DNA from: an uncultured virus (IMG/VR IMGVR_UViG_3300020048_000041)
Taxonomy: Duplodnaviria; Heunggongvirae; Uroviricota; Caudoviricetes
Direction: 5' to 3' (one strand)
IMG/VR virus record: IMGVR_UViG_3300020048_000041
Length of the DNA stretch: 64,000 nt
This document shows, piece by piece, positions 5,562 to 54,865 of this stretch. Position 1 is the stretch's first letter. Every line of letters starts with the position of its first letter. The position numbers and the translations under genes were made by a program. Under the pieces are notes generated by a model that had not been told where the DNA came from, ran no database searches, and saw only the letters and a list, made by a program, of their open reading frames with translations.

Positions 5562-5634
5562 AACTTTACTTTATGTTGCTAAACACGTATAATAGCCTAG
5601 TCGGGCGTGAATTGAGGTTAAGCGCTTAAAAATA
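5562..5634 (+). repeat. Copy 1 of promoter plus conserved non-coding element
   Basis: TTTACT-N17-TATAAT then AGCCTAGTCGGGCGTGAATTGAGGTTAAGCGCTTAAAAATA; 69/73 identical to the reverse complement of 54793..54865. Confidence 0.9.
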
Positions 5635-5665
5635 AAGCCGGTAAACTGTTAAGTCATACCGGCTT
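5626..5665 (-). terminator. Intrinsic terminator (possibly bidirectional)
   Basis: AAGCCGGTA/TACCGGCTT stem with T-tract on the minus strand after ORF 5673..5876. Confidence 0.7.
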
Positions 5666-5672
5666 ATGAATA

Positions 5673-5876
5673 CTATTTTGATAAGACTTGTCTAAGTAAA
5701 TTCTTTAATTCTGATAGTTCTGATTTAAGGCTAACCACTTCAGAAGATAAAGAATGTGTTTTATTATTTTCCTCACGCATTTCCTTAAATTTACGCATTT
5801 CATTAATGTCTACATTCAATATAGAATTTGACCGTTCATCACGTTTTAAACTAGGATTATCTTTTACACTTATCAT
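5673..5876 (-). CDS. Conserved small coiled-coil protein following DUF4815 genes
   Basis: VKDNPSLKRD..SNSILN...LKSELSELKNLL pattern of T4-like phages. Confidence 0.7.
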   Translation of the reverse strand: MISVKDNPSLKRDERSNSILNVDINEMRKFKEMREENNKTHSLSSEVVSLKSELSELKNLLRQVLSK

Positions 5877-7732
5877 GACGTTGCTATAGCTCTCAAATTT
5901 TTAACTCTAGGGAAATTAACAGGGTTATCCGAATACATCACCACTTTGACAATAAAGGTTTTGAACGAGCTGTGATTTACCTTTCCAAGTTGATAATAAA
6001 AATCATCAAGTTTGTACTCATCAATAACAAAATCATTATCGGTTGATGAATACTGCACATCACCTTTTAATGGAATTTGTATATACGAATGGTCTTCAAA
6101 CGTAGCGAAATCATCACCGGCAACCGCCTTAAAGAAAACTTCAACAGATGTTCCATGTAGTCTATTTACATCAAGCAAAACTCTAATTCCAGTAGCATCA
6201 AATCCATCAGCCAATACTACTTTTTTCGTCACGTATTTAGCCGCCGCGCCGCCCTTATTAGGATCGGTTTCATCAACCAATAAATCCAGTTTGGTGTTAA
6301 TAGCGTTCTGAAAAAATTTCATATTAATCTTATCTTTCTGAATAACAGGAGAAAGATTAGTACTGGTTGACGATAGGTTAAACTTAACATAAGGCGTTGT
6401 CGCAGAAGATAAAGTCGTTCTGGTTGCTAGTTTCGTATTTGTATTATTGTTGATTGGGATGTAATCGCCACCCAATTTAGAATAATATTTCAACGATGTA
6501 CCGGCAATTTCTTTATCAGGCGAAGTGATGCTAATCATATCAGATATAATAGAATCTGAATCTTTGATTAAGGGTATTTCAACATCAAGAGAAGAAGTAT
6601 TAAATACACACTTATGGATATTAAACATCATATCTTTAGTTTGGTCAGCAGTCCATGTTCTGGCGTTTTGCGACATAAAGAATGACCCGACATTACCGTC
6701 TGGATTTGTTGAAATTAGCTTATCTGTAGCCAAATCTGTAGAACCCAATTCCGAAACGAAAACGCGGTATTTTGCGTTGTCCGAACCAACAACGATAGCA
6801 TATTCTCCAGCTTCAAGATGAATAGGATCGCTAAATGTAAACGTTGTTGCTGCAGGGATAGGAGCTATGCTAGTTCCTGTTGGTAAATTAACAGAAGCGT
6901 ATGGCTTTTCAACTCTTGAGTTTGTGATATACGAATCAGAAGAAGGATACCCGTTAACTGTTTTTGTTATGTAAATCCAAGCAGTAGAGTTTGAACCAGT
7001 TTCAGGTTTTTGCGAAAAATAGACATCTGCTTTAGAAAGGAATAAGCCGTTAGGGTATTCTTTTGGGTTTACATAAAATGATTGTGCAACTGGATCAATA
7101 GAAACATTTAATAATGCAGCAGCCGTTCCTATTGATATATATTGATTTGTGACTACATCTTCAGTTGATAATCCTATAGAGCTTTCACTTGAGTTATGGT
7201 CATCTCCATTTATAAAAATATAAAATGATGTTGACGGTGCTATAAAAACACCGTCAAATCTAATATCGTCTTTACCTGGAACAGAAGTTTGTGTGCCTGT
7301 AATAGATTGCCCAGTCGTCCACGCAGTATCACTAGTGCTGAAAGATAATGCAATAGCAGAGCCACCTTTACTTACAGGATGTGGCTTAGTTGAAAGATAA
7401 TAAACTGTTATATTTTGACCAACTAAATTATTTGAAATTTGAACTGTTACCCTTCCTCTCCACCCATATATACCTTTATCATTTGTCTCTCCTGATATGC
7501 TAATTATATTTTTTTGTATCCCAAAACTTTTTGTTGTAGAATATTTCGGATAATCGACATTCACAGGTATTGCTGTGTTTGTGGAATTTATAGAAAATAC
7601 AAAATTTCCATCAGTAGGTGAAAATGTTGATATGATCGGGGTGGATTTAAAATCGACTGCACATCTTATGGAACCAGCTAAATCTGTTCCCGTAACTTGA
7701 CCAACAGGCAATGTACCTTTAAATTTTGACAT
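5873..7732 (-). CDS. C-terminal part of DUF4815/VrlC-like virion structural protein
   Basis: DPVAQSFYV...GLFLSKADVYF, GSFFMSQNARTWTADQ..DMMF, AKYVTKKVVL, final PRVKNLRAIA; own SD AAGGA. Confidence 0.75.
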   Translation of the reverse strand: MSKFKGTLPVGQVTGTDLAGSIRCAVDFKSTPIISTFSPTDGNFVFSINSTNTAIPVNVDYPKYSTTKSFGIQKNIISISGETNDKGIYGWRGRVTVQISNNLVGQNITVYYLSTKPHPVSKGGSAIALSFSTSDTAWTTGQSITGTQTSVPGKDDIRFDGVFIAPSTSFYIFINGDDHNSSESSIGLSTEDVVTNQYISIGTAAALLNVSIDPVAQSFYVNPKEYPNGLFLSKADVYFSQKPETGSNSTAWIYITKTVNGYPSSDSYITNSRVEKPYASVNLPTGTSIAPIPAATTFTFSDPIHLEAGEYAIVVGSDNAKYRVFVSELGSTDLATDKLISTNPDGNVGSFFMSQNARTWTADQTKDMMFNIHKCVFNTSSLDVEIPLIKDSDSIISDMISITSPDKEIAGTSLKYYSKLGGDYIPINNNTNTKLATRTTLSSATTPYVKFNLSSTSTNLSPVIQKDKINMKFFQNAINTKLDLLVDETDPNKGGAAAKYVTKKVVLADGFDATGIRVLLDVNRLHGTSVEVFFKAVAGDDFATFEDHSYIQIPLKGDVQYSSTDNDFVIDEYKLDDFYYQLGKVNHSSFKTFIVKVVMYSDNPVNFPRVKNLRAIATS

Positions 7733-7808
7733 AGTATTCCTTTATGTTTAACTTTGGAATTTGGCGGGTTAATGTAAAACCCGCCAAATAATTCAATTAA
7801 TTAATGCG

Positions 7809-10800
7809 TTAAATGTACATTTTCCGTATAGGAAGGACTGAAACTGTTGGACCAGCACCCATAAAACTTGGGCTGACTTGACCGTCTTGTTTGTACGAAT
7901 GATACAAGCCTTTATTATCAAAATACCAAAAGAATGGAATATTCTCTAAAATAATAGGATAGGATAGTGTGTTTGATTTTGAAAATCCACTAAACACATT
8001 CATCATACGTTTATCTGGAATAATCCAGTCATTATACCAATCAGAAACACCTAATTCTTGATTATTTAGTTTATCCACATAATCTTTAGCTTCCTGGAAA
8101 TTACTAACATAGGTTCTAAAATTTATGTCGTATTTTATAATAAACTTGGTATTTGGAATTTCTTTACCGGCGCTATCTACGTCAAACCAAGTTTTGTTTC
8201 CATAAACCGTTAAGCCGTCTGAAGTATCAGTTCCTTCAATCCATTTTTTTCTAGAACCGTTAACAATTGGACTATTCAAATCAACAAATGTAACATTATC
8301 CACAGTTATACCTTTTGGAGGAGTTAAAGTCCAATTTAATGGAGTTTTGCTATTAAATCCTGTGGTATCAACATTAAATGTTATTAATTTACTTGTCGCA
8401 TATAATAGGTTATCTTTAGTTGTTACATTAATCGTCCCATCAGATTTTTCTTCTAAAATATTTAAAAACGCATTTAATGAAGTTGTTGCTGCAGCCGGTC
8501 TATTTAAGAAAAACATAGCCTGAGCAATCATATCTAAATTCAATTTATTAGGCAATGCTCTAAATTTGAATTTATAATGAGATGTTGCATTAGATCCATA
8601 AGTTATAATTCCTGCAACTTCTTTTGACACATTTGTAATATCACTAACTAATGGTTCAATATATTCAACCAAATCCGCAGAGAAATTTAATGCGCTTGGT
8701 AACACATTGTTATACCCCTGCACAACAAAATATTCATTATTCTTAACTTGCGTTATCGAATTTCCATTCATATCAAAAAAGTTGATAGTCTGGTTCGGTG
8801 TTGATGAATTAACAACAAATGCTGATGATGTGACAACAGAACCGTTCGTCGTATACGCCGTATCTTTAGGGTAAACTGTTAACAATATTTCTGTGCTTTG
8901 GTCAACAATTAAATTATCGTCTAATTTGAATTTAACTTTATTTTCAGTCAATAAATTTCTAGCGTAAACTGTAGTTGTTGCAACAGGAGATATTGTAGTA
9001 GTAACACCGTCGCCACTTTCTTCAATTAAGCTAAATTTTCTACCATTTTTAGTTGCTAACGTAAAGTTATACAAATCAGTAACAGATGCGTTTTTAGGCG
9101 TAATCGTAAATGTTACAATTTCTCCTTCTTTTTTAGCATTATTCGCAGAAGATGAATCGTTAGTGATTACAAAGGTTTTCTTTAATCCCGCATTTTGAGA
9201 AACGTTTATTGGGAAAAACGCAACAGAACCATCAGAACCAACAAATTTAATTCTACACTGCTTAGGTACTGTGGCAGAAGAGTTAAATCCAACAGGAATA
9301 TAATATTTAAATTTCGCGACGTTCCCAGGCATCGCTATATTGCTACTGTTAAACGTAACCAATCTAGAAGTTAAATCTTCAACAATTGTTGTGCCATTAA
9401 GGTCTGTGTATGAAATATGAACACCAGCAGAACCTTGTATACCAACATAAGATCCTGAAGAATAATCAAACACACCAACTTGATATGTTGTATCAGTAAG
9501 CCTTGGCGTAATTTGTACTTCCCAAGCCTGCACTTCATTTACATCCTTATCTGCTGATATTAAGATGCCTTTGTTTGTGTCTACTAATGTAGTAGATTTA
9601 ATTGTAGCATCAGCAACATTTACAATTTTAGATTCTACATAGCCTACTGCATCAGATTTAGAAGTCACCTTAATCGTTACTTTATCATTCCCTGTCAATG
9701 TAATTGAAGGAGTTAATACCCCACTTGCATTGATAGCAGTTACCGCTGTTCCGTTAACCCAAACATTTATATCTGAAGCTAAAGTTACACTGTGCAAAGG
9801 TAGCGTTAAAGTATGCGTATCACCACTAGCAAAATTCTCTGGCGAATATTCCATGGTAACAGAACCGCCGTTATAAATTGTCATTGGCAACGATGGTTTA
9901 TAAGCTTTAACTGGAGCTGCAGCAATAGTAGAAGTCACTAAAGATGAAGCCAAATAGGTTAAATCATTTGCTCTGATAATATAGCATGTCAAACTGACTT
10001 TATCATTCGCGGTAATTGAACCAGTGTTAACTTTGAATTTTACAAGGTCATTTGCATAAGTCGTTACATCATATAACAATCCAGTTGTAGGAATCACAGC
10101 GTTTAGTGCCGCGTTTGTTGTTGTATGAGAAGAAATAACCGTAGCAGCTGAACCACCATTTGGTGTAATTGTAAAATTAGAAGCTGTTAATGCTGTTGTA
10201 TTGCCCGCTAACGGATTAATAACAAAATAAACCTTATCTGTAGATGTATTGATAACAGCAGTTTTATTAACGAAAATATCATAATCACCACCGATTATAA
10301 TACTAAATGCAGACTCACCAGCATATCCATTTCTGTAAATAGATAAAGCATCAGAAACGATAGATTTAGTTTTTACTGTTAAGGTTTGTTTCGTTGCCAA
10401 TTGTTTAATTACACCAGAAACCTTAGCAGAACTCAGAGTTAGCGAAATATCATTACCGGCTTGTAACGTGCTAGTGTTCTTTTTAATCCAGAATGTAGTT
10501 GATGCTATTTTGTTAGAATCTACTTTATTATCAGTAACAGGTATAGAGTAAACCGCGCTTCCTGTAGGTGATATGAATAAATCTAAAGATTTCGTTCCAG
10601 CTTGAATTGTATACGATACCAAATCTCCAGAAGTAAAATCTCCAGAATAAATATCAGCTCTAACCATATAAGGGTTAGCAGAATCTGGTAAAGTCAAAAA
10701 CGATGTTATTTCAGAACCTGATACATCGTAAAATTTAATCACAGGTAATGGAGTCGCAACAGATACCATCGTCATTTCTGAATTTGTTCCTGTAGGAACA

Positions 10801-13800
10801 ACGCCGCCTGCGTCAACAACAGTCAACACGATAGCTTTATTCGTAGGATACCCAACAGAATTTCTTGTTATTGCTGCAGTTAAAGAACCACCAACAGAAA
10901 TCGTACCAGAACCACTGTATGTGCTAAAATAGGTTGAAATATCACTAGCATCAGCAAAGGCAATAGACCAAGTTACGTTTCTAGATGTATTTTCATTTGC
11001 AATAGTAACAGTGTAATTTTTAGTTGCGCCGGCGGCTATCGTAGCAGAATCTTTTGCTATTGTAAACGCACGAGCAGAATTATTCAAATACAGTGTACTT
11101 GTTCCAGACAAACCCCCACGAACAGCAGATTTTACTTCTGCTTTTAATGTAATATTACTTGGAACCGCAAGGGTGAACCCTACATCAACTAAATTAGATG
11201 CAGCAGTTAACGCCGCAACGGTCATAGTTTGAGAAAATGTGTTGGTATTTCCACTAAATACATACCCAGAAGTTGGCATTGGACTTGGTGTTATTGTAAT
11301 AGTTACATTTTCTGTAGTAGGTAGCGCTGTTTGAGTGATTAACAATTTAGCAGAAGAAGCCGTACCGCTTGTGCTAGTTGGATTAATCGTAGTCAAATCT
11401 GCTGTGTTAGTACTGTTTCTAAATTTAGTAGATAAAGTAGGTTGAACTGATTTAGATAAGTTATATGTGCTAGATGTTAACGTATCTTTATCATTATACA
11501 ACATAGTGACATTAAAGGTTTTATCTAATGTAGCAGTTCTTAAAGCAACCGCAGTCAAACTAAATGTAAACACACCAGAACTATTCAACACACCAGAAGT
11601 AGCATTTAAGGTATATTCATTAGATGCTAAATTTGAAACTTTGATTCCTGTAACTTTAGTGCCAGCAGCAGCAGAACCATAACTTGATGTTACTGTGAAG
11701 TTAATTGTTTCACTATCAGCAATACTAGCATTGGCAGATTTATTTGCTGTTAACGTAGAAGTTTCGGCATCATTTTGAATATAACAAATAGAATTAGTGC
11801 CTTTCCCTTTGTTCGTTCCAGTTAACTCCAATTTCAACGTTTTTGGCGCAGTTAATACTAAGCTATTAGAAACTGCGACAGATACAACCAAAGTTGTTCC
11901 TGTGAACGAAGTAATAGCAGGAGAAACTGTATAACCGGTTAAAGTTGTTACATCAACATCATTAGCCGTAATAATAAACGGGATTGTGTCAGATGACGCA
12001 TTTGTTGTATAATGATTAGTTTCTAACGCAAAGGTTATTCTAGATCCTTGAGCAACATTAGAAGAATAAGCGTTATTTGACAATTTGTAATATTTCGTGT
12101 CAAATATACCTATGATTCTAACAATATGTTCTTTAGAGTTACCAGAAGCGTCAGTAAAGACGTATCTATACTGACCATTTTTATCTTTGTATACAGTTTG
12201 ACCAGAAACATCATCAGAAGAAACATTTCGCGTTAATACGTGACTTGAACTTGCGTTAGATGTGTTAAACGGATTTGCTGTAGAAAACGATGATGTGATA
12301 TCAACTTCAGCGGCGCTTCCGATTTTCTTATAAACTTTATACGAAATAGGAATATCCGCTTCAGCATTAGTGGACTGGAATGTCACATTAACGGTATCAG
12401 TTGTCCCTACTGAAATTGGACCAGTTACAGAATATTCAGTTTTTACAGGATTCAACAATTTAATCGTAGACGATAAAGATGTACCGTATAAAAATTCAGG
12501 ATATTTCGTAATGTCTCTGCTAGATTTATTATGCGGAGTAACCGTTAGCGTAATTTTTCTAGCAGCTTGAGATACCCCATCATCTGTTACTTTCAATTTA
12601 ATGACTGCTTTACCAGCTGAATCAACGTCAAACGTAAACGATGCCAAAGATGTAATTGCTGTTCCATTTACAGTTTTAGAATCAAAGGTAGCCGTTCCAT
12701 CTGTTACAACAACTGTGCCAGTAAAGTCGCCTTTCAAATCATAGTTGACCGCGTTAAACGTAAAGGTGAATATCTCTGCTTCACTAACAACATAACTAGA
12801 TGGTTCAATGGTATAAGTAGAAGTTGGTTTAGGAACTTTTAACTCAGTCACCGTAGCAGTGCCAACTTGGTCGCCTGTAACAACAGTAATAGGTTTTTCA
12901 TCAGCATATTTTGCGCTCATGTCAACGTAATAGTTAACAGAAACATATGATGATGCGTATTCTTTACCAGCCGGACTATTAGAGAAAGTAATTACAAAAG
13001 TAGATCCTTCTTTCCCCTCAGGAATAACGATATAACCGGTCGCGTTGCCAGAATCATCTGTAGCAGGTGGAGTCGTTAAAAATACAGAACCTGTTGCGTT
13101 TGTTACAAACCCGTCTTCTTGCAATTCTTTACCAAAGAAATAATACAAATTGGTGTTAGCCAACATGTTAGTTACTTTATATTGGATAACGCGCTCACGT
13201 GTAACAGGAATAATATTTTTAGTGAAATTATATGTTGTTCCTGATACAACTTTATTTTTTGAAGTGGCAATATCAATAAAATCAGCATCGGCAGAAGTTA
13301 TAGCAGATGTAGATAAAGTAGCGCCTGATTTCGGATCCCAAGCATTCCATACTGTAACCGGCACAAGGTCTGATGTTCCAGCTAATTGTTTAATTGTATC
13401 AGCATCGTTTACAGGCAACAACTCTTTAACCCAGTGGTCTGTATCTGGAACCAAAGCAGCAGAACCAGACACTGTAACAACATTATAAGGGTTAACTGAT
13501 ACTGTTGTTGAATACGAATCCACACCGGTTAATTTTGTTGAAGTATAGGGTAAAGTGATTGTGTTAGAATTTATACCCGTTCCAGTCGTAGCTAAATTAG
13601 CATGAGCTGTTTTAGTATAGAATTTTGGTCTTAATTCATTTTTGTCATAATCAATCTCAGTTTGCATATCTGGATTGGTAACGTCAGCAACATTTTTACC
13701 TTGAAAAGAATCAACTAAGAACCCGTTGTTGAATAATGGAGTGCCATTATCATCAGTAAAGGTTTTAGATGATGTATCTTTTTCAAGCATAGACAACGAG

Positions 13801-16592
13801 GTATAATATTCCACATTCTCAATTCTGCCTTCTAATGCTCCGATATCTTTCATCGTATATCTTTTATTTTTAACTAAAGATAATTTTGTCGATTTTTCAT
13901 CGTCAGTATAAGCATCATAGGTAATAGAACAAATATCCATAGCATCTGGGTTAGATGCTGGATTGGTAGGTTGTCTAGCAGGAATACCTTGTATGATTTG
14001 ATATTTACCTGTTTTGTCTAAAGACAATTTGTCGATTCTACCAAGATAATAATCAACATCTAAAATAGCATTAGAATATGGCAAAGTGAATGTATCAAAC
14101 CCCGCCGCGTCTTCTTGTTGAACTGGTCTAAAGTCTAAACAGTTTCTCAATTTGTACGTTGAAAACGACACACTATCGTAATAATCTCCAATATCAGAAT
14201 ATGAAACACCAATAGCGTTATTTACAACCAGAGGTCCTTCACCAGAATGTAAATAATAGTCAAATACAACCAAAACTGTTGTTGCTACTGTGAACACAGA
14301 TGTTCTGCTTATTGACCCATTACCGTAATAAGAATCAGTTTGACCGTTATCAATTTGGAATTTAGAAGCAATATTTTCATATGCAGTTGTTCCTAATGTA
14401 GTTCCTGTAATATCATACAGTTTACCGTTACGCATAACAACAGAATTAGAAGCATATGTGACTAATGGGTCATATGTACCGGCGTAAGTTTTACTTGCAA
14501 CTACATAAGCGCCCGTGAATTTATGAATATCAGAAACACCCAAACTTTGTTTAACCGCTGAGTTTGCTGCAAAACTGACAGTTTTTCCATAATTTACCAC
14601 TAAGGTTTTTGTTCTTGTAGCCTGTCCAGTTATATTTACAGTGGCTATGATATCAACAGTCCCATTAAATGACGAATCATTAAAGTCAAAACTCACAGAA
14701 GAATTTGTTAATGGATTTGTGCTAACTGTAATATCTGCGGTAGACAAATCTAATATTGTGTCAACCGTATAACCAGTGCCAGATGACAAAGTCAATAAAG
14801 ATATTGTATAATTAATATTGTTAAATGAACCAGAAGATGGAACAAAATCTTTAGTCAATGAATCTGAAGTTAAAGAACAAACGCCACCGTAAACAGGAAC
14901 AGATTTGAATAATCTTTTAGATTCATAAGAAGCTGTAGAAACGGTTTTAATATTACCAAGTGGAATTGGGAACACCAATAATCTATTTGCTGTATCAGAT
15001 ATTTTAGACGAAATAAGGGTAGCTGTGAATTCTCCTGAAATTTCGCCAATAGAAACAACAGAAGCAAACGATTCAGCAGTTAATACAACATCATCTAGAT
15101 AAAGTTGATATTCTCCATAAGAAACTGGAAGTAAGTTTATAACTCTAGCAGTCCCAATAACAACATCACTGGAAGAATAAAAATTAATTGAAGATGAACT
15201 TGTTATATCAGGCAGATTACCGGTTATTTCACTGACAGTGATGTAGTTACCATATTGAGTTGCAACTGTGTAATCTAATGTAGATGCGAAAGTTCTTGGT
15301 TTTGTTAACTCAATAGAAGTTACGCCATTTTTTTCAATCTCGTAGCCTTTAACATAAGCTTTTCCTGGTGCGACATTTAAAGTTAATAATGTATCATCTG
15401 GGTTAGCTTTTACCGTAGGTAATAAACCATTTACAATATAATCTCCAGATTCGTCATATGTTCTACGAGCGAATATATCTTCAAGATTTGAATAGATAGG
15501 TAGGCGTTGGTCTGATTCAACAACACCATTTTTAATGTGGCAAATATCAATGAAATCTTCAGAAGATAAAGATTGTTCTTGATAGGAAACAGCAGATGCT
15601 TCTAAAGATATGAAATATCTATCTGCACCTGGAGCAGCATAGTTGTACGAACCGAAAGAAGGATCTAATAAAGTTGAATCTGTATCAGAAGTAATAATTG
15701 ATTCAACTGCTTTTAATCCGATAACTTTAGACAATGGAACCGTATATGATGTTGCATCTGTTACTAAAGTGTTAGCATTATTTTTAAGGGTTAAATGTGT
15801 ATTATCTGCGATACTTAATACAGTTCCGATAAGTTTATTATCAGATGTAAAAATATCATCACCAATAGCTAATTCAGTTGTAAATAATGTTCCAACGCCG
15901 GTAATACTAGCAGAACTTGTTATTGCTGTAATTGTTCCCGTATAAGGCAAATTAGCATATTTAGAAACAACAATAGTTTGCGTCGGGCAATATACAAATG
16001 AATTTTTAGTATAAAAAATGCCTTCGTCAATACCAAATAAAACAGAATTTCCAGATACATTATCTCCAGTTGCTTCAGTAGAAAAAGATCTAAAAATAGA
16101 AGTCGTGCCTATAACTGGGTTTGGAACAGAATACACATCAAGACGAACACCAGTAGACACATATTTTGATGACGATCCTGTAGAGCCACCAGAAAGGAAA
16201 GTAGCATAAATTGTTTTTGGGTCTGTGCCAGTTTTTTGTGTAACTGCTTTAATTAAAAACTTTCTATTATCTGGTTTAAGTACATCTTCACTATTTACAA
16301 CGATAGTTTTACCAACTAAAGTATCATCAAAAACGATAGCACCGCTATTAAACGAATCTGAGATTTTAAAATAGGTTACGTTAAAATCAATTGTGTGCGC
16401 AGCACCATCAACAACTGAACCATCTTCAAAAATATGGTCAGCAAATTTTGTTACTTGGTTTTGAAGAATTGATTGTATCTGCGTAAGCTCACGCGCTTGG
16501 ACTGCGACTCCTGGTTTAAAAAGTATCTTATGGAATCCTTTTTTATGATCATAATCATCATAATAAGGATCTATGTTCAAATTCTTTGGCAT
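7809..16592 (-). CDS. Giant DUF4815/VrlC-like baseplate or fibre-attachment protein with long Ig-like extension (2927 aa)
   Basis: N-terminal NLNIDPYYDDYD...ILFKPGVAVQARELTQIQSILQNQ; APGADR; ARRTYDESGDY; RYTMKDIGALEGRIENVEYYTSLS; then ~1700 aa of Thr/Ser-rich beta repeats. Confidence 0.8.
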   Translation of the reverse strand: MPKNLNIDPYYDDYDHKKGFHKILFKPGVAVQARELTQIQSILQNQVTKFADHIFEDGSVVDGAAHTIDFNVTYFKISDSFNSGAIVFDDTLVGKTIVVNSEDVLKPDNRKFLIKAVTQKTGTDPKTIYATFLSGGSTGSSSKYVSTGVRLDVYSVPNPVIGTTSIFRSFSTEATGDNVSGNSVLFGIDEGIFYTKNSFVYCPTQTIVVSKYANLPYTGTITAITSSASITGVGTLFTTELAIGDDIFTSDNKLIGTVLSIADNTHLTLKNNANTLVTDATSYTVPLSKVIGLKAVESIITSDTDSTLLDPSFGSYNYAAPGADRYFISLEASAVSYQEQSLSSEDFIDICHIKNGVVESDQRLPIYSNLEDIFARRTYDESGDYIVNGLLPTVKANPDDTLLTLNVAPGKAYVKGYEIEKNGVTSIELTKPRTFASTLDYTVATQYGNYITVSEITGNLPDITSSSSINFYSSSDVVIGTARVINLLPVSYGEYQLYLDDVVLTAESFASVVSIGEISGEFTATLISSKISDTANRLLVFPIPLGNIKTVSTASYESKRLFKSVPVYGGVCSLTSDSLTKDFVPSSGSFNNINYTISLLTLSSGTGYTVDTILDLSTADITVSTNPLTNSSVSFDFNDSSFNGTVDIIATVNITGQATRTKTLVVNYGKTVSFAANSAVKQSLGVSDIHKFTGAYVVASKTYAGTYDPLVTYASNSVVMRNGKLYDITGTTLGTTAYENIASKFQIDNGQTDSYYGNGSISRTSVFTVATTVLVVFDYYLHSGEGPLVVNNAIGVSYSDIGDYYDSVSFSTYKLRNCLDFRPVQQEDAAGFDTFTLPYSNAILDVDYYLGRIDKLSLDKTGKYQIIQGIPARQPTNPASNPDAMDICSITYDAYTDDEKSTKLSLVKNKRYTMKDIGALEGRIENVEYYTSLSMLEKDTSSKTFTDDNGTPLFNNGFLVDSFQGKNVADVTNPDMQTEIDYDKNELRPKFYTKTAHANLATTGTGINSNTITLPYTSTKLTGVDSYSTTVSVNPYNVVTVSGSAALVPDTDHWVKELLPVNDADTIKQLAGTSDLVPVTVWNAWDPKSGATLSTSAITSADADFIDIATSKNKVVSGTTYNFTKNIIPVTRERVIQYKVTNMLANTNLYYFFGKELQEDGFVTNATGSVFLTTPPATDDSGNATGYIVIPEGKEGSTFVITFSNSPAGKEYASSYVSVNYYVDMSAKYADEKPITVVTGDQVGTATVTELKVPKPTSTYTIEPSSYVVSEAEIFTFTFNAVNYDLKGDFTGTVVVTDGTATFDSKTVNGTAITSLASFTFDVDSAGKAVIKLKVTDDGVSQAARKITLTVTPHNKSSRDITKYPEFLYGTSLSSTIKLLNPVKTEYSVTGPISVGTTDTVNVTFQSTNAEADIPISYKVYKKIGSAAEVDITSSFSTANPFNTSNASSSHVLTRNVSSDDVSGQTVYKDKNGQYRYVFTDASGNSKEHIVRIIGIFDTKYYKLSNNAYSSNVAQGSRITFALETNHYTTNASSDTIPFIITANDVDVTTLTGYTVSPAITSFTGTTLVVSVAVSNSLVLTAPKTLKLELTGTNKGKGTNSICYIQNDAETSTLTANKSANASIADSETINFTVTSSYGSAAAGTKVTGIKVSNLASNEYTLNATSGVLNSSGVFTFSLTAVALRTATLDKTFNVTMLYNDKDTLTSSTYNLSKSVQPTLSTKFRNSTNTADLTTINPTSTSGTASSAKLLITQTALPTTENVTITITPSPMPTSGYVFSGNTNTFSQTMTVAALTAASNLVDVGFTLAVPSNITLKAEVKSAVRGGLSGTSTLYLNNSARAFTIAKDSATIAAGATKNYTVTIANENTSRNVTWSIAFADASDISTYFSTYSGSGTISVGGSLTAAITRNSVGYPTNKAIVLTVVDAGGVVPTGTNSEMTMVSVATPLPVIKFYDVSGSEITSFLTLPDSANPYMVRADIYSGDFTSGDLVSYTIQAGTKSLDLFISPTGSAVYSIPVTDNKVDSNKIASTTFWIKKNTSTLQAGNDISLTLSSAKVSGVIKQLATKQTLTVKTKSIVSDALSIYRNGYAGESAFSIIIGGDYDIFVNKTAVINTSTDKVYFVINPLAGNTTALTASNFTITPNGGSAATVISSHTTTNAALNAVIPTTGLLYDVTTYANDLVKFKVNTGSITANDKVSLTCYIIRANDLTYLASSLVTSTIAAAPVKAYKPSLPMTIYNGGSVTMEYSPENFASGDTHTLTLPLHSVTLASDINVWVNGTAVTAINASGVLTPSITLTGNDKVTIKVTSKSDAVGYVESKIVNVADATIKSTTLVDTNKGILISADKDVNEVQAWEVQITPRLTDTTYQVGVFDYSSGSYVGIQGSAGVHISYTDLNGTTIVEDLTSRLVTFNSSNIAMPGNVAKFKYYIPVGFNSSATVPKQCRIKFVGSDGSVAFFPINVSQNAGLKKTFVITNDSSSANNAKKEGEIVTFTITPKNASVTDLYNFTLATKNGRKFSLIEESGDGVTTTISPVATTTVYARNLLTENKVKFKLDDNLIVDQSTEILLTVYPKDTAYTTNGSVVTSSAFVVNSSTPNQTINFFDMNGNSITQVKNNEYFVVQGYNNVLPSALNFSADLVEYIEPLVSDITNVSKEVAGIITYGSNATSHYKFKFRALPNKLNLDMIAQAMFFLNRPAAATTSLNAFLNILEEKSDGTINVTTKDNLLYATSKLITFNVDTTGFNSKTPLNWTLTPPKGITVDNVTFVDLNSPIVNGSRKKWIEGTDTSDGLTVYGNKTWFDVDSAGKEIPNTKFIIKYDINFRTYVSNFQEAKDYVDKLNNQELGVSDWYNDWIIPDKRMMNVFSGFSKSNTLSYPIILENIPFFWYFDNKGLYHSYKQDGQVSPSFMGAGPTVSVLPIRKMYI

Positions 16593-22487: not shown

Positions 22488-23545
22488 TATCGTGTACGTT
22501 CCAGTGTTAGGTTAAGCGTGTATGGCAAATTAGATTCTGTTATGTAAAATTCAATACTAATATTTGCCAAATTTTTATTAGATTCTGGACTAATAACAAC
22601 ATCAACATTTGTTAAGGTAGCTCTAGGCTCATATGCTGATACCACCTCTCTAATTGTACGTTTAATAATTTCAGCGTAAACCGGAGAAGAAGATTCAAAT
22701 AAAAGGCTGGTGATTTGCGAGCCTAGATTTGAATTAAACGGGCGTTCATAATTCATTGTTCTGACAAGATGCTCAATAGAAGTTTTAACCGCGTTTGCAT
22801 CAATCTTAAAGGTAATATCACCAGGATGCGAAAATGTAAAATTAGCATCTGACACTGTAATATGATTAGTTGAATCAGCAAGTTCCAATACGAATATCGC
22901 ATGTTCTATGTTTTCAAGAACGTTATCGGTCACAGTTCTTATTTGAACATATGCCGTGTAAACATCTTGAGCCTTTTCATAAAATGCTAAAGTCCCGCTA
23001 AGGTAATCCGAAATGTTAAATGTATTATCAGAATTTCTAGGATATTCACCAACAACGTCAAAAGAATCTAACCCTAAAATTCTATATTTGACAGGATAAT
23101 TTTCTGTATCAGGGTAATCTGTATCAACATCAAAACGAATCAAATTTGACTCTATCTGATTGTTTGATAGGTTAGACACATTAAAAAAGTATTCTGTTCC
23201 ATCCTTATTGAATGTAAATGTACCATTGGATACTGTTGACTCTGTCACCTGTAAGTATGTTTCATCATACAAATCCGTCATTATCGAAAGTAAAGCGTTT
23301 CCGTATAGTGTTAAAAATGAGTCAGATTCTATAGATTTAATTTTACCTATGAATGAATTAGACACATAAAGATTATCATCTATAGAAAGGTAACGGGTGA
23401 ATTCTGTATCAAACCCAACCACAATTGGCGATCCAGAGTTGTAATTAAGATATCCTTTACCTGAAATGCGTTCAAATGCTGAAGGGTTAGGCATGAAGTT
23501 GAGGTCGATATCCTTGTAGCGTTTTATCGTTGACATATTCGGCAT
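22487..23545 (-). CDS. gp25: Baseplate wedge subunit gp25 with ~215-aa internal insertion
   Basis: N-terminal YKDIDLNF; C-terminal AVKTSI..LVRT..YERPFN..LGS...LLFE...YEPR...LERTR. Confidence 0.8.
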   Translation of the reverse strand: MPNMSTIKRYKDIDLNFMPNPSAFERISGKGYLNYNSGSPIVVGFDTEFTRYLSIDDNLYVSNSFIGKIKSIESDSFLTLYGNALLSIMTDLYDETYLQVTESTVSNGTFTFNKDGTEYFFNVSNLSNNQIESNLIRFDVDTDYPDTENYPVKYRILGLDSFDVVGEYPRNSDNTFNISDYLSGTLAFYEKAQDVYTAYVQIRTVTDNVLENIEHAIFVLELADSTNHITVSDANFTFSHPGDITFKIDANAVKTSIEHLVRTMNYERPFNSNLGSQITSLLFESSSPVYAEIIKRTIREVVSAYEPRATLTNVDVVISPESNKNLANISIEFYITESNLPYTLNLTLERTR

Positions 23546-23598
23546 TAAGTTAAAAGTGTTAGATATAAATATTTAGCGTTAAAAATCTAAAAAAATAA

Positions 23599-23667
23599 AA
23601 CTTTACTTTTTACTCCTAGAAGCGTATAATAGCTTAGTCGGGCGTGAATTGAGGTTAAGCGGCTAAA
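23599..23667 (+). repeat. Copy 2 of promoter plus conserved non-coding element
   Basis: TTTACT-N17-TATAAT then AGCTTAGTCGGGCGTGAATTGAGGTTAAGCG; 38/39 identical to copy 1 over 23623..23661. Confidence 0.9.
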
Positions 23668-23699
23668 TTAATCATGATATTAACTTTATTGGGGTATTT

Positions 23700-24077
23700 A
23701 TGGAAATTGAAACTATTACACTAGATGAAGAACGAATTGAACGATTCTTAAATGAATTTAAAGGTGAAGTTCAACCGTGGACAAAAGATAATCTATTAGA
23801 AAAACAAATGTTCAAAGGTTTGTTTGTGACTAGACAGGCGGCTATTGAATACCTGTATAAGATGGATGCTGATGTACTAAAGCGTGAAGAATATAAATAT
23901 ACCGGTATTATGTTACGCAGAGTCAAAGAACCTAAATCTGGAACCATTTACACAGAAAGAAGTAAAGAAGGGTTTCCTGGAATATGCTATGATTATTTGT
24001 GTTGGTTGATATCAAGTTGGGTGCCAAAATCGGATATAGATATAACACAATTTAAAACACCCAAACCAGATAAATGA
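23700..24077 (+). CDS. Hypothetical early protein, antisense to the baseplate genes
   Basis: 125-aa ORF with SD GGGG, upstream promoter and downstream hairpin. Confidence 0.75.
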   Translation: MEIETITLDEERIERFLNEFKGEVQPWTKDNLLEKQMFKGLFVTRQAAIEYLYKMDADVLKREEYKYTGIMLRRVKEPKSGTIYTERSKEGFPGICYDYLCWLISSWVPKSDIDITQFKTPKPDK

Positions 24078-30566: not shown

Positions 30567-30613
30567 GGGTATAAAATCCTTTTAAATAAGTTAAATAAAC
30601 CATTCATTTATAT

Positions 30614-30631
30614 TATTTAAGCCGCTAAATA
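30614..30631. promoter_or_regulatory. Divergent late promoters
   Basis: TTAAATA on minus (30614..30620) and CTAAATA on plus (30625..30631) between gp48 and gp4. Confidence 0.65.
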
Positions 30632-30636
30632 AAATT

Positions 30637-31104
30637 ATGAGAAAAACGAGATTTCCAAAACCCCGAAAATGGTTTCCCAAAAACCCAGAAAAATATGTTG
30701 GTGATGTAACTAATATCATATCAAGAAGCAGCTGGGAAACTAAATTTTTAAATTGGGCAGATAATAACCCTGCTATAATTTCATATTCATCTGAAGAAAC
30801 GGTTATACCTTACATATCTATAACGGATATGAAACCACATAGATATTATCCTGATTTTAAAATTAAGGTAAAAGATGCACAAGGTAATATTAAAACCTAT
30901 ATCGTTGAAATTAAGCCTAATTCACAAAGAAATCCTCCTATATATAAAGGAAAGAAAACCCAAAGATACATAAATGAATGTTCTACATTTATGGTTAATC
31001 AATCAAAATGGAAAGCGGCAGAAAGTTTTTGTAAAGAACGTGGGTTAGGGTTCATTGTATTAGATGAATATGATTTAGGTATAGCACAAAGGAAAACAAA
31101 ATGA
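30637..31104 (+). CDS. gp4: Head completion nuclease gp4
   Basis: PKNPEKY.GD...I..RSSWE..F..W.D.N; HRYYPDF; VEIKP; NQSKWKAA..FC. Confidence 0.92.
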   Translation: MRKTRFPKPRKWFPKNPEKYVGDVTNIISRSSWETKFLNWADNNPAIISYSSEETVIPYISITDMKPHRYYPDFKIKVKDAQGNIKTYIVEIKPNSQRNPPIYKGKKTQRYINECSTFMVNQSKWKAAESFCKERGLGFIVLDEYDLGIAQRKTK

Positions 31105-31844
31105 TACAGCAAGATGTTGAAAGTCCAAGTCCGGCTGCAATTAAAAAACTAAGAACAAAAAATGGGTTAACCTTACAAAAGGCGGCAACTTTAGCCGGCG
31201 TTGCGTCATCTACATTTGAGAAAATGGAGAATGGCGTTATTAAAATGTCAGCTGAGGTTTGGGATAAACTGAATCGTAAGACAGCGGTAAAGCCTAATAT
31301 AAAAGCCACCTTAGAAACATCAACTAATTATGAGTTGAAAGATTTGGTTTTAAAATCTAAAGCGTGGTTTAATTCTGAAGCAAAATCATTAGCAGCATCA
31401 ACCACATTAAAGGTTAGCGGTAGAGCAACTGGTTCTCCTGTTCCTGGAGAAATGTATTCATTTTACTATGATGCTAAACACAAAGATACTTTACCTTACT
31501 GGGATAAATTTCCATTAGTGTTTCCTTTCAGAATTATGCCTGATGGATTTTACGGTATTAATTTACATTACTTACATTACAAAGAACGGATTATATTATT
31601 AGACGCATTGGATGCGGTTGCTACATCCCCTAGAAAAGAAGTATCAAAAAGATTACAAATTTCGTATTCAATATTACAGCAGGCGGCTAAAAATAAAAAA
31701 TTCGAAAAATGTATTCATAGATATTTGTTTGCTCATTTGAAAACCCCGTTAAAAAAGATACATTCAGATAAATGGATTTTAAGCGCGATGCTACCAAACG
31801 AAATGTTTGTTGGTGCGACGACTAAACAAATATGGAGTTTATAG
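31101..31844 (+). CDS. gp2: DNA end protector gp2 with N-terminal XRE-type HTH
   Basis: GEMYSFYYDAKHKDTLPYWDKFPLVFP...GFYGINLHYL; N-terminal IKKLR...GLT...AA.LAGV..ST..KMENG. Confidence 0.88.
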   Translation: MIQQDVESPSPAAIKKLRTKNGLTLQKAATLAGVASSTFEKMENGVIKMSAEVWDKLNRKTAVKPNIKATLETSTNYELKDLVLKSKAWFNSEAKSLAASTTLKVSGRATGSPVPGEMYSFYYDAKHKDTLPYWDKFPLVFPFRIMPDGFYGINLHYLHYKERIILLDALDAVATSPRKEVSKRLQISYSILQQAAKNKKFEKCIHRYLFAHLKTPLKKIHSDKWILSAMLPNEMFVGATTKQIWSL

Positions 31845-37571: not shown

Positions 37572-37602
37572 ATTATACCTTAATTTTAATTTAAAGTAAA
37601 GC
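37572..37602 (-). promoter_or_regulatory. Early sigma70-type promoter
   Basis: GCTTTACTTT...TATAAT with 17-bp spacer. Confidence 0.8.
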
Positions 37603-38716: not shown

Positions 38717-38746
38717 ATTATACTACTATTTTTGTAAAAGTAAAGC
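38717..38746 (-). promoter_or_regulatory. Early promoter cassette
   Basis: GCTTTACTTT...TATAAT. Confidence 0.8.
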
Positions 38747-41401: not shown

Positions 41402-41477
41402 TACACACTCCAAATAATTTAATTACGGTTTAACTTCATTACGATCTATTATACTACTAATTTTGGAAAAGTAAAGC
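41402..41477 (-). promoter_or_regulatory. Early promoter plus conserved leader
   Basis: GCTTTACTTT...TATAATAGATCGTAATGAAGTTAAACCG...TTTGGAGTGT. Confidence 0.85.
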
Positions 41478-41483: not shown

Positions 41484-41819
41484 TTAAATTATTTTCAACA
41501 TACCCTTGATTCGAAATGTTTTATTTTGTTTTTCTAGAACGTATGGGCAATTTTCTGAATTGAAATCTCTACTAAACCATCCTTCAACAAAAAATTTATT
41601 AGTGTCAAAAAATTTTCCAAACTGGTCAAATACAACCACTGCTTCTCCACAAATTTTGATTTGGTTAACACCAGCATAAGTTTTTACATCCACTATTCTA
41701 ACGATATCGCCGGTACTTAGTAAGTCACCGTTTGAATCTTTCATGTTGGTTAAAATACCAACATGACAATAATCCATCCATTTACCACCGCCACATAAAG
41801 TTTGTATCATTTTCATCAT
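41484..41819 (-). CDS. YopX-like hypothetical protein
   Basis: T.MKDSNG..L..GDIV resembles YopX TGLKDKNG.EIYEGDIV; SD GGAG before 41819. Confidence 0.5.
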   Translation of the reverse strand: MMKMIQTLCGGGKWMDYCHVGILTNMKDSNGDLLSTGDIVRIVDVKTYAGVNQIKICGEAVVVFDQFGKFFDTNKFFVEGWFSRDFNSENCPYVLEKQNKTFRIKGMLKII

Positions 41820-41821
41820 AC

Positions 41822-41891
41822 TCTCCAAATAATTCATTAAGGTTTTACTTCATTAAGATCTATTATACTCGATTATTTTTAAAAGTAAAGC
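41822..41891 (-). promoter_or_regulatory. Early promoter plus conserved leader
   Basis: GCTTTACTTT...TATAATAGATCTTAATGAAGTAAAACCTTAATGAATTATTTGGAG. Confidence 0.85.
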
Positions 41892-47334: not shown

Positions 47335-47760
47335 CTACAATTTGATATGTGATTTAGATATTCGACATTGAATTTGCCCGTTATACCATAAATCAGGATG
47401 CTCAAGTACCTCATGTTGAAATTGCAACTTTGCTTCAAGGTAACTCATCATTCCTTTTGTTTTAATCAAATGTAGGATTTCCCTTTTAAAATTATCTTTC
47501 CCTAACAGTTCAACATCATTTTTCAATTCTATAGAACTGGAATAATAATCTTTCCAATCTGATTCACTGGTTTTTTTGACTCTTTTCTTTTTCTTTTCGC
47601 CACTTTTTAGGGTGACAGTTTTCATAGATGAAGTAAAAGAGTAAAATTGTTTTTTCCCGATATAGCGCCGCCCGTTAGTCAAGTTCGTTATCAAATATAC
47701 GAATCCAATTGCATCGCCGATGTTTTCAGAAATGAATTCCTTTTCATTGTAATGCCACAT
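47335..47760 (-). CDS. Conserved GIY-YIG-fold protein
   Basis: GFVYLITNLTNGRRYIGKK; ESDWKDYYSSS; FKREIL; YLEAK.QF. Confidence 0.8.
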   Translation of the reverse strand: MWHYNEKEFISENIGDAIGFVYLITNLTNGRRYIGKKQFYSFTSSMKTVTLKSGEKKKKRVKKTSESDWKDYYSSSIELKNDVELLGKDNFKREILHLIKTKGMMSYLEAKLQFQHEVLEHPDLWYNGQIQCRISKSHIKL

Positions 47761-48809: not shown

Positions 48810-48828
48810 AATGTACTCCTAATGTTAA

Positions 48829-48981
48829 TTAATCTTCAAATTCAAAATCATCATCGTCTTGTAATAACGGTGACCCACATACGGGACAAATCGCTATGTC
48901 GTTTAACGTTATTTCTTTTGTTTTAATACTTATTTTTCCGCTTGACTCGCAATGGTCACAGTCGAACTGTTTTGTTGTCAT
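48829..48981 (-). CDS. Small Zn-ribbon protein (50 aa, not in ORF track)
   Basis: SD AAGGA; CDHC...CPVCG with acidic tail. Confidence 0.75.
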   Translation of the reverse strand: MTTKQFDCDHCESSGKISIKTKEITLNDIAICPVCGSPLLQDDDDFEFED

Positions 48982-49017
48982 CTAAATTCCTTTTTGTTAC
49001 CGCAAATTTTATTTATT

Positions 49018-49025
49018 TATAAATA
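49018..49025 (+). promoter_or_regulatory. Late promoter TATAAATA
   Basis: Exact T4 late consensus upstream of the endonuclease gene. Confidence 0.7.
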
Positions 49026-49093
49026 TTAAGGGTGTTACTCGCGGACGGCAATCCCAGTAACTCTAACCATTCTAACAGTAAAAAGGATCTACT

Positions 49094-49975
49094 ATGACTA
49101 GCAAAATTTTACATCAACCATATTTTTATATCATTAGACATATCACATCAAATAAAATGTACGCAGGTTCAAGATGGGCTAAAGGGTGTAATCCTTCTGA
49201 ATTTATGGTTCTTGATGGGTACACCACATCATCCAAAATAATTAATGAAATAATCCAACAAGAAGGATTAGATTCATTTGAAATACTTAGAATTGATACT
49301 TATTGTGACGGTGTCCATGTAAATAAATATGAACAAACTTTTTTAGAAACCAATAATTGTGCATTATCTAATATTTGGTTTAATAAACATAACGGCTTAG
49401 GTTTAGCAGATTGGTTATTTGTTAACGATATCGTTAATGCAATGCAACTACCAGAATGCGTTTTTAAATCTAATAAAACTAAAACTAAAAAATATGGAAA
49501 TGAAAACTACAATAATTCAGAAAAAGCAACACTTTCTAGAATATCTACACTTTTAGAAAAATATGGTGTTGATAATATTATGAAAGTTTCAACAATTTGT
49601 TCAAAAAGCTTATCAAATCGTAATATTTCTAATTTTGAAAAATATGGTGTATCAAACACATCTTCGTTACCAAATGTAAAAAAGAAAATATCTGAAACAA
49701 CTATATCTAATAATCAACAAAAATATGGAGTTAACGGATATTTTGAAACTGAAGAGTTTTCAATAAAATCAAAGAAAACTCTTCAAAAAAAGTATGGTGT
49801 TTCGCATAATAGCCAAATTCCAAGCGTCAAAGAATCAAAAAAACAACATATGTTAGACACATATGGTGTCGAAAATCAAGGACAAATACCGTTTTTGACA
49901 ATTATACAAACAAAAAGAACATATTCTAAGGCAAGTATTTCAAGACATTTTCCATATTTTAAACAATATTATTAA
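49094..49975 (+). mobile_element. Free-standing GIY-YIG-like homing endonuclease with KYGV repeats
   Basis: PYFYIIRH.....MYAGSR...E..FL......WFNK catalytic domain; six (K)YG(V) repeats; opposite strand, convergent with nrdA. Confidence 0.7.
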
Positions 49976-49983
49976 TAATTAGA

Positions 49984-52676: not shown

Positions 52677-52755
52677 ATCAATCCTATTGTGTTATAATTT
52701 CCATATTCATACGGTATATTCACCGCATATGTCATTTATATATACCGCCATAAAT

Positions 52756-53466: not shown

Positions 53467-53504
53467 TACTTATCCTTTTCAAAATTGGTTCTAATTTAAT
53501 TTAG

Positions 53505-54503: not shown

Positions 54504-54508
54504 AGCAC

Positions 54509-54721
54509 CTACCCTTTAGATTTTGCGAATTCTCTGATTTTTGAAGCTGGTAAATCGTGAATATCATATACACACTTAGGATCTGCTTGGCAAGCTTCAA
54601 ACCTTTGCATATAGTAATTTCCTGGAACATCATCGGTTAATATTACGATAGACAAAATTACGCTAAAGAATAGCAAAATACTTGTGAAAATAAACCATGG
54701 ACTAGCAAAATAATTATACAT
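54509..54721 (-). CDS. Small membrane-anchored protein
   Basis: N-terminal hydrophobic helix; SD AAGGA; own early promoter. Confidence 0.7.
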   Translation of the reverse strand: MYNYFASPWFIFTSILLFFSVILSIVILTDDVPGNYYMQRFEACQADPKCVYDIHDLPASKIREFAKSKG

Positions 54722-54744
54722 AATGTTTCCTTTAAAGAGAGTTA

Positions 54745-54775
54745 ATTATACGGCGAATTGGAACTAAAGTAAAGC
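54745..54775 (-). promoter_or_regulatory. Early promoter
   Basis: GCTTTACTTT...TATAAT. Confidence 0.8.
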
Positions 54776-54792
54776 TTTAATCAATATAGGAA

Positions 54793-54865
54793 TATTTTTA
54801 AGCGCTTAACCTCAATTCACGCCCGACTAGGCTATTATACGTGTTTGAGGACATAAAGTAAAGTT
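54793..54865 (-). repeat. Copy 3 of promoter plus conserved non-coding element
   Basis: Reverse complement is 69/73 identical to 5562..5634. Confidence 0.9.

Follow-up and report, generated by a model that had tools for sequence, protein, structure and literature searches.

A Portable Early-Promoter Cassette With a Conserved Initial Transcribed Sequence in a Freshwater T4-Like Myovirus

Introduction

The stretch of 64,000 nucleotides (nt) analyzed here, referred to below as the window (IMG/VR virus record IMGVR_UViG_3300020048_000041), is part of an uncultured freshwater T4-like myovirus and carries three dispersed copies of an early-promoter cassette. The cassette is a self-contained unit of about 100 bp, consisting of an A/T tract, a promoter, a G-rich, C-poor block of about 32 nt, and A/T-rich DNA. 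Its conserved part is the initial transcribed sequence and not a translation start. The element is a portable early-promoter cassette that is related in its behavior to the elements named PeSLs, and in a clade of freshwater T4-like myoviruses it recurs as a dispersed family, at about eight roughly evenly spaced copies per genome. Its limits are sharp, selection on it is strong, and its spacing is oddly regular. The reading that is tentatively favored is that of a PeSL-like cassette in which a predicted trans-acting partner reads the start block as sequence, through a common 5′ part and a lineage-specific 3′ part.

To our knowledge, T4-like phages of aquatic bacteria have no T4 MotA/AsiA system. 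Being near-invariant, coupled to a promoter, and evenly spaced, with a 3′ half that differs between lineages, the element offers a concrete handle on the ordering of early, middle, and late expression and on the start of replication in these phages, and it points to about eight places in each genome at which to look for a factor, an R-loop, or a small RNA. It also extends the PeSL picture, in that the conserved part consists of the first 32 transcribed bases and not of a ribosome-binding site. If the element is only a strong promoter with a stabilizing leader, it is still a useful portable part.

Conservation of the Initial Transcribed Sequence

The 27-mer TAGTCGGGCGTGAATTGAGGTTAAGCG is present without mismatch in three of three copies, at 5598–5624 (+), 23635–23661 (+), and 54803–54829 (−), which are the places named in an earlier, sequence-only reading of the window; 100 shuffles gave zero matches at three or fewer mismatches, and none is expected by chance. 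As that reading had also described, TTTACT-N17-TATAAT precedes each copy (5565–5593 on the plus strand, 23602–23630 on the plus strand, and 54862–54834 on the minus strand) and AGC(C/T) lies between the −10 and the core. The usual distance of 7 nt predicts the G of TAGTC as the transcription start, which gives starts at ~5600, ~23637, and ~54827. The three copies differ in the 17-nt spacer, where the mismatches had been said to lie almost entirely, and copy 2 differs additionally beyond +26.

A conservation profile of 34 distinct 170-nt instances confirms that the transcribed part is the conserved part, in that the conserved block begins at the predicted transcription start, in fixed register to the promoter. 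The A/T tract and the −35 are mostly 76–100% conserved, most positions of the 17-nt spacer 40–60%, the region from −12 to +12 97–100%, and the region from +13 to +32 65–100%; beyond +33 conservation is at background. The search pattern behind this profile itself prescribed positions −6 to +12; two less biased searches agree with the profile. A search with a 16-mer of the 3′ half yielded 26 loci; of these, 6 are chance matches and 20 are genuine elements, each of which has its 5′ half intact. A promoter-anchored search that left the start block free yielded 73 distinct sequences: 26 with the exact 14-nt core, 1 with a changed core (GTGAA to GTTAA), and 46 unrelated promoters of other phages. 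AAAATAAAAC upstream together with TTTACT-N17-TATAAT is found in all three window copies and in 33 of the 34 distinct instances, the −10 being lost in one. The elements are thus a family of self-contained units, each with a promoter and a conserved non-coding transcribed block, as the sequence-only reading had held.

The invariant part of the block comprises the first 12–14 nt, and the next ~18 nt are lineage-specific. The versions of this 3′ half are V0 (AATTGAGGTTAAGCG), V1 (AATTAAGGATAAGCGG), V2 (AATTGGGTTTAGGCGC), and V3 (AAGTAAGGGTTAACGCC); in all of them a purine-rich RRGG stands at a constant place and an A-rich tract follows. The palindrome TTAAGCGCTTAA does terminate copies 1 and 3 of the window, as had been noted, and is lacking in copy 2 and in several relatives; it is not a conserved feature. 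The possibility that the 3′ end of the block is a late promoter was rejected: copy 2 and some variants agree with it, whereas CTTAAAAATA, the commonest form, does not. The sequence-only reading had also mentioned a GTG-AAT-TGA minigene, to which little weight is given: V1 and V3 retain the in-frame stop, yet one copy lacks the GTG, and no ribosome-binding site stands at a working distance.

Positions +1 to +25 contain 11 G and 3 C, a skew equaled in 0.10% of 25-nt windows on either strand. The A+T content is 44% at +1 to +25, 75% at +26 to +65, and 65% in the window. This composition bears on the reading of the copies as R-loop origins, which was the preferred one in the sequence-only reading and is here considered to be on the unlikely side. 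G-rich nascent RNA would stay on the C-rich template beside A/T-rich DNA and prime the leading strand, and the hybrid would let gp59 load the gp41/gp61 primosome; the family would then be one of identical, evenly spaced origins. That the promoter is integral to the unit, that a block within the top 0.10% of windows for its G over C begins at the transcription start, and that DNA richer in A+T than the window follows at +26 to +65 all speak for such origins. However, the first 25 nt are the least A/T-rich part, unlike the T4 unwinding element, which comes after the promoter.

Distribution and Spacing in Relatives

The exact 20-mer of the element occurs at 24 loci on 19 IMG/VR contigs. It is preceded by TATAATAGC(C/T/A) at 24 of 24 loci, and the −35 TTTACT with the 17-nt spacing is intact at 22 of them, the −10 being lost in one and the −35 in one. 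The window and six partial contigs together hold 14 copies in 291 kb. Among reference prokaryote contigs, the exact 25-mer is found once only, on a 3.2-kb phage-like fragment of a metagenome-assembled genome (MAG) that contains the whole cassette.

A metagenome contig of 161,379 bp has eight copies, at 17.7, 42.2, 61.1, 76.7, and 98.9 kb on the minus strand and at 110.9, 130.5, and 149.5 kb on the plus strand; copies 1, 2, and 3 of the window correspond to those at 130.5, 149.5, and 17.7 kb, respectively. The gaps are 12.0–24.5 kb, plus 29.6 kb across the contig ends. For eight points placed at random, a smallest gap of this size or larger has a probability of 0.0016 if they are placed on a circle and 0.0025 if on a line, and a coefficient of variation this low or lower has probabilities of 0.0003 and 0.0002, respectively, values that come from one contig only and from an exact 22-mer scan, which misses divergent copies. 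Even spacing and indifference to downstream genes are features that R-loop origins would have; three copies within ~650 bp of one contig are not. The nearness of copies to genes that lie at T4 origins, which the sequence-only reading had stressed, carries little weight at about eight copies per genome.

The cassette is independent of what lies downstream, which may be a second promoter, an open reading frame (ORF), or the 3′ end of a convergent late gene. Three of the eight copies of the 161-kb contig have a second early promoter 29–36 nt further on, and past it a gene. Another three stand immediately upstream of an ORF, at core-to-ORF distances of 10 to 52 nt, and the three ORFs driven directly are mutually unrelated (a 125-amino-acid protein, a phrog_11543 protein, and a holin-like membrane protein). 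The remaining two face the 3′ end of a convergent late gene in antisense and have no ORF of their own. About 11 contexts in the wider set are all of those three kinds. Ordinary leaders directly upstream of ORFs, which would have refuted the sequence-only reading by its own test had they been the majority, make up only three of eight copies in this relative. All three plus-strand copies of the contig are located in the structural-gene region, back-to-back with a late promoter (CTAAATA).

These contexts can be set against the reading of the element as a plain strong early promoter, which is likewise considered to be on the unlikely side. The block would tune promoter escape or, with its Shine-Dalgarno-like GAGG, stabilize the 5′ end of the mRNA, and gene conversion would keep the copies uniform. 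Comparable 5′ stabilizers are the T4 gene 32 leader and STAB-SD elements. Genes are indeed fed by copy 3 and by six of the eight copies of the 161-kb contig, and the RRGG keeps its position in V0–V3, but two of the eight copies have no gene to serve and the even spacing is left unaccounted for.

Recombination and Gene Conversion Among Copies

Several copies are located at junctions between relatives. In two of them (G001, G005), an 800-bp insertion exactly past the core of copy 3 holds a NUMOD3 homing endonuclease gene of 240 amino acids on the opposite strand, the stop codon of which falls within the 3′ end of the element. In G001, the copy 3 cassette runs antisense through the inserted gene to a strong hairpin and T-run. 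The endonuclease cassette consists of a late promoter, CTAAATATTTTGTAC (CTAAATA), a hairpin, GCCACTCGCGGGATTGCAGTCCCCAGTGGC, a ribosome-binding site, and an ORF starting MTSTSIY; it is located at G001:C1:37201–38003 (L033) and is also present upstream of the element at two further loci (L186, L191). It abuts the A/T tract of early promoters at at least three loci, where its hairpin terminates the opposite strand, and in the 161-kb contig it borders the upstream side of two other copies.

Copies also exchange sequence with one another. Both copies of one relative (G007) are of version V2 and have an identical spacer, whereas the orthologous loci of the 161-kb contig are V0 and have two different spacers; between the loci L184 and L197, the flanks are 91–97% identical and the −10 to +32 block is only 84% identical. 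These two comparisons indicate that copies are converted as units of at least ~60 bp. The copies are thus homogenized by gene conversion and lie at indel, rearrangement, and homing-endonuclease junctions. The 3′ half switches type faster than its surroundings, as specificity determinants do, and the 5′ core stays constant.

The conversion observed between copies and the location of copies at indel, endonuclease, and rearrangement junctions are what a plain early promoter kept uniform by conversion would show. However, the spacer, which lies within the same converted unit, varies freely (40–60% conserved) and the block does not, and the 14-nt core is the same in 26 of 27 cassettes although lineage flanks are only 56–81% identical. 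Conversion alone is therefore insufficient, and the start block is kept by selection.

The Three Copies in the Window

The promoter of copy 1 occupies 5551–5593 (+), with an A/T-rich tract, the −35 TTTACT at 5565–5570, the 17-nt spacer, and the −10 TATAAT at 5588–5593. Its block, 5594–5633 (+), begins with the AGCC discriminator and contains the start at ~5600, the core (5598–5624), and the A-tract CTTAAAAAT. A hairpin, AGCCGGTA...TACCGGCT, follows at 5636–5664; because it has a T-run on the minus strand only, it is assigned as the terminator of the convergent late gene at 5873–7732 (−). Copy 1 aims into this hairpin, beyond which lie ~18 kb of antisense late genes. On its other side, the late-promoter motif CTAAATAT at 5543–5550 (−), 15 nt upstream of the −35, serves the gene starting at 5487 (−).

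Facing copy 1 is a pair of paralogous coding regions. A 2,927-amino-acid ORF at 7809–16592 (−) matches phrog_358 and phrog_877 and is followed by a paralogous piece of 619 amino acids at 5873–7732; together they probably represent a giant fiber or structural protein.

Copy 2 has its promoter at 23588–23630 (+), with the −35 at 23602–23607 and the −10 at 23625–23630, and its block at 23631–23670 (+), with AGCT and the core at 23635–23661. It directly drives a 125-amino-acid ORF, assigned to no family, at 23700–24077 (+). The motif CTAAATAT recurs at 23569–23576 (−), where it serves the baseplate operon starting at 23545 (−). Copies 1 and 2 therefore stand back-to-back with late promoters, as stated in the sequence-only reading, the minus-strand CTAAATA lying at 5550 and 23576 and the genes starting at 5487 and 23545. 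The 3′ end of copy 2, GCGGCTAAATTAAT, is unlike that of copies 1 and 3 and similar to the local late-promoter motif.

The 3′ end of copy 2 also varies among relatives. Compared with window positions 23655–23680, the element ends with GCGCTTAAAAAG, then TTTAGCGCTAAATTAAT, in some of them (L024, L188); the form in the window and G001 is shorter, as though the DNA between two TAAGCGCT-like repeats had been deleted. A TTTAGCGCT motif is also present immediately upstream of the copy 2 cassette.

Copy 3 lies on the minus strand. Its promoter, 54834–54876, comprises an A/T-rich upstream tract, the −35 (54862–54857), and the −10 (54839–54834), and its block, 54794–54833, comprises AGCC, the core (54829–54803), and the A-tract. 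A second early promoter stands in tandem at 54745–54773 (−), 29 nt past the core, and is followed on the same strand by a 70-amino-acid ORF (54721–54509) and primase (54503–53505). Copy 3 heads the unit for primase, thymidylate synthase, and ribonucleotide reductase, and the intrinsic terminator of the preceding early unit is located ~200 nt ahead of it, at 55067–55089 (−). The earlier statement that copies 1 and 3 have no ORF downstream consequently holds for copy 1, with its hairpin and convergent gene, but not for copy 3, which heads the primase operon in tandem with the second promoter.

In three DNA runs, contigs break within copy 3 at 54819/54820 and the spot depth is ~8–16 times that of single-copy DNA, a rough figure to which relatives and shared promoter sequence contribute. 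Joints at 54872 and 54791 in DNA runs were rejected as recombinants, as their short sides are 20–46 nt and promoter sequence shared between sites is what is joined.

A perfect 15-bp inverted repeat, GTAAGTCATTGATTT / AAATCAATGACTTAC, occupies 55016–55002 and 54959–54945 (minus strand) and encloses ~42 nt of A/T-rich DNA. The terminator (55089–55067) and copy 3 are separated by a gap of 263 nt ahead of the primase unit, and the repeat sits in this gap; one of its arms is also found in the 161-kb relative (L190). The repeat may serve for protein binding or form an origin-like structure.

The back-to-back arrangement with late promoters admits a further reading, which is quite unlikely, in which the cassettes are sequence-identical R-loop launch sites and the 3′ end of the RNA is both a replication primer and a loading point for the gp45 clamp. 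In T4, the gp45 clamp activates late promoters from a nick in the non-transcribed strand. In the late-gene regions here, the template strand of the RNA would be the non-transcribed strand of the divergent late promoter 15–30 nt away, and, if so, origin firing and late transcription would be coupled at about eight points of the genome.

RNA Folding, Families, and Targets

The copies could also be sources of a multicopy small RNA or decoy, a reading that is regarded as unlikely. About eight promoters would make the same ~34-nt 5′ RNA, freed by processing in the A/U-rich tract, and the invariant 5′ end would be a seed against a host RNA, or else a mimic (an antitoxin or a CRISPR-repeat-like decoy). 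Conservation that runs from the start site and peaks in the first 12–14 nt, as in small RNAs with a 5′ seed, is consistent with this, as are the identical RNA made whatever lies downstream, the high copy number with a tandem pair 90 nt apart, and the A-rich tract that follows the block in nearly all versions. What an independent RNA would need besides is not found: the copies have no terminator or defined 3′ end (copy 1 has one by accident of context only), and the folding energies of five variants (z +0.62 to −0.67) are not better than those of shuffles.

Searches for families and targets also tell against a small RNA. An Rfam 15 scan of 5500–5760 with E up to 10, a comparison that the sequence-only reading had proposed, gave only five sub-threshold chance matches. 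No complement of 11 nt or more is present in the window and six contigs, only scattered 9–10-mers. Pairing with a class-B early leader (see below) was suggested by a 9-bp match seen by eye and was rejected, since RNAduplex against 14 leaders gave z of −2.0 at best and the match is lost in the V2 lineage. A GCGU/GCGC stem is, by eye, broken in the few GCGG variants. The single reference hit of the exact 25-mer, on the phage-like MAG fragment, means that no host array or gene is mimicked exactly, the scan having covered identical sequence only. The core 12-mer gave nothing relevant in the literature. GGTTAAGCG may resemble a 23S rRNA 5′ end.

Comparison With PeSLs and T4 Origins

PeSLs (promoter-early stem-loops) of T4-type phages are described as short early-promoter cassettes of the sigma-70 type with an A/T-rich upstream tract, repeated genome-wide, which adjoin indels and gene replacements between close relatives and recombine mutually (PMC2839356; PMC4122927). 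Their layout begins with a terminator stem-loop and ends with a Shine-Dalgarno sequence and start codon, and the copies cluster in hyperplastic regions (PMC2839356; PMC4122927). The present element resembles PeSLs, as there portrayed, in its early promoter with an A/T tract, its dispersed repeats, its location at junctions, and its recombining copies. Unlike them, it has no fixed Shine-Dalgarno sequence, start codon, or stem-loop, and instead has a near-invariant 32-nt non-coding start block; also unlike the PeSLs of hyperplastic regions, its copies lie 12–30 kb apart and occur within the structural-gene module. An upstream terminator stem-loop is found at four of the eight copies of the 161-kb contig, two of these being hairpins of the neighboring endonuclease cassette, and in the window it is missing at copies 1 and 2 and 200 nt off at copy 3. 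A 3′ end of the PeSL type, with a Shine-Dalgarno sequence and start codon, was not seen, the ORF being direct in only three of the eight copies and at distances of 10–52 nt.

A scan of the window with TTTAC[AT]-N16–18-TAnA[AT]T found 20 promoter sites, which include two early-promoter classes. Class A is the element, with AAAAC ahead of the −35 and a start block that has no ribosome-binding site and is unrelated to class B; the earlier statement that this leader is unrelated to those of the other early promoters is thereby upheld. Class B has the form AAAGCTTTACTTTT...TATAAT AGATCGTAATGAAGTTAAACCTTAATGA...GGAG...ATG (sites at 41.4, 41.9, 62.4, 62.8, 63.1, and 63.6 kb), with a conserved leader ending in a ribosome-binding site, and flanks small ORFs. 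Class-B promoters with AAAGCTTTACTTT are located, all on the minus strand, at 37572–37600, 38717–38744, 41448–41475, and 41862–41889, and further ones at 62364–62391, 62801–62828, 63050–63077, and 63617–63644. Six of these eight leaders have a TAATGAA direct repeat, then GGAG and ATG, and the leaders at 37.6 and 38.7 kb are divergent. Between two class-B promoters, the ORF at 41484–41837 is replaced by unrelated DNA in G001, G002, and G005. Class-B promoters thus behave as classical PeSL cassettes and fit the PeSL definition better than class A does.

The T4 origins ori(uvsY)/oriF and ori(34)/oriG have MotA middle promoters directly followed by an A+T-rich unwinding element, and T4 origins have no common motif and R-loop formation is without need for a specific sequence (PMC3016281). 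The present element shares with oriF and oriG, as described there, a unit of ~100 bp with an integral promoter and a downstream element, dispersal, and a T4-type replisome with gp59; it differs from them in its early-type promoter, its invariant G+C-rich block, and its common motif. PMC3016281 also supplies the T4 precedent for R-loop origins, and genes for gp59, gp32, and primase are present in the window. Because these T4 origins are described without a motif or sequence requirement, an invariant 14-nt core combined with lineage-specific 3′ versions is not predicted by R-loop origins.

Proposed Recognition by a Trans-Acting Partner

The tentatively favored reading, in which the start block is read by a trans-acting partner, may be set out as follows. 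The element promoters would fire early, through host RNA polymerase with sigma-70, and the start block would be recognized just after initiation as primary sequence and not as a fold. The partner would bind either the DNA at ~+1 to +30 or the nascent RNA. The invariant 5′ part would meet a partner common to all lineages, for example the host transcription machinery, and the swappable 3′ part a phage-lineage-specific factor, by a logic such as that of the lambda nut boxA/boxB or ops/JUMPStart leaders. The likeliest outcome would be about eight co-regulated early transcription units. The polymerases would possibly be processive and termination-resistant, each copy spanning a sector of ~20 kb, including antisense transcription through late operons; simple on/off control would be an alternative outcome. 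Recognition by a trans-acting factor would explain the spacing (via long units) as well as the invariance, the switching of types, and the lack of dependence on downstream content.

Lambda nut (boxA and boxB) and ops/JUMPStart are promoter-proximal elements that are read by factors modifying the elongating polymerase. The element resembles them in having host-conserved and lineage-specific parts, in standing at the head of long units, and in being indifferent to downstream DNA; unlike them, it shows no hairpin of the boxB type, does not match boxA consistently, and lacks the ops consensus. Genes resembling N, Q, or RfaH were not identified here, and we know of no system of the nut or ops type in T4-like phages. 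A nut-type leader in the strict sense does not fit, as the GCGCTT(T)AA that looks boxA-like by eye becomes GCGGAT in V1 and no hairpin is conserved.

Several points weigh against recognition by a trans-acting partner. A Pfam search of 51 ORFs (30–64 kb) found no MotA, AsiA, N-like, or Q-like protein, and only a helix-turn-helix protein at 31101–31844. The block has neither dyad symmetry nor a conserved hairpin of the boxB kind, and the boxA-like GCGCTT(T)AA is not preserved in V1. Gene conversion alone could yield concerted variants without a co-evolving partner, and the G-richness of the block is left unaccounted for. As to the sectors, the even spacing has the single-contig basis given above, G006 has a gap of 9.3 kb, and a 10.8-kb contig has three copies in ~650 bp, two of them in tandem 90 nt apart; the third has its −35 replaced by coding DNA.

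The Phage and Other Features of the Window

The window has a G+C content of ~34% and contains genes for baseplate wedge proteins, a gp5-like hub/lysozyme, ribonucleotide reductase, thymidylate synthase, and primase, as well as gp32, gp59, gp33, and gp53. Among cultured phages, Methylophilales phage Melnitz and Pelagibacter phage HTVC008M come closest, with gp6 proteins that are only 39% identical in amino-acid sequence, and blastn of positions 5400–5900 against 50,697 phage records gave zero matches. DNA of the window is present in public runs from lake and freshwater metagenomes. One RNA run was found, with 5% of the query words and with contigs that are mostly <90% identical and lie outside the element.

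The motif (G)CTAAATA is the late-promoter motif of the phage and is found at 5543–5550, at 23569–23576, at ~16640, and at ~30585–30630; the T4 late-promoter form, TATAAATA, is unlike it. The divergent genes starting at 30566 (−) and 30637 (+) are separated by a back-to-back pair of late promoters. The gene at 30637 begins the segment 30637–31844 (+), which encodes a protein with a TnsA-like endonuclease N-terminal domain and then a 247-amino-acid HTH_3/HTH_31 protein, amid plus-strand late genes.

The window has further endonuclease genes. A SegE-type GIY-YIG endonuclease is encoded at 47335–47760 (−) (PF19835, 1e-38), and a homing endonuclease of 293 amino acids (phrog_3339) at 49094–49975 (+), flanked by the ribonucleotide reductase large subunit and the early unit that comes next. 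The latter is missing in G001, in G005, and in contigs of two lake metagenome runs, in which 48998 is joined to 50019 by 44 other letters, and the 49094–49975 endonuclease is thus an insertion polymorphism.

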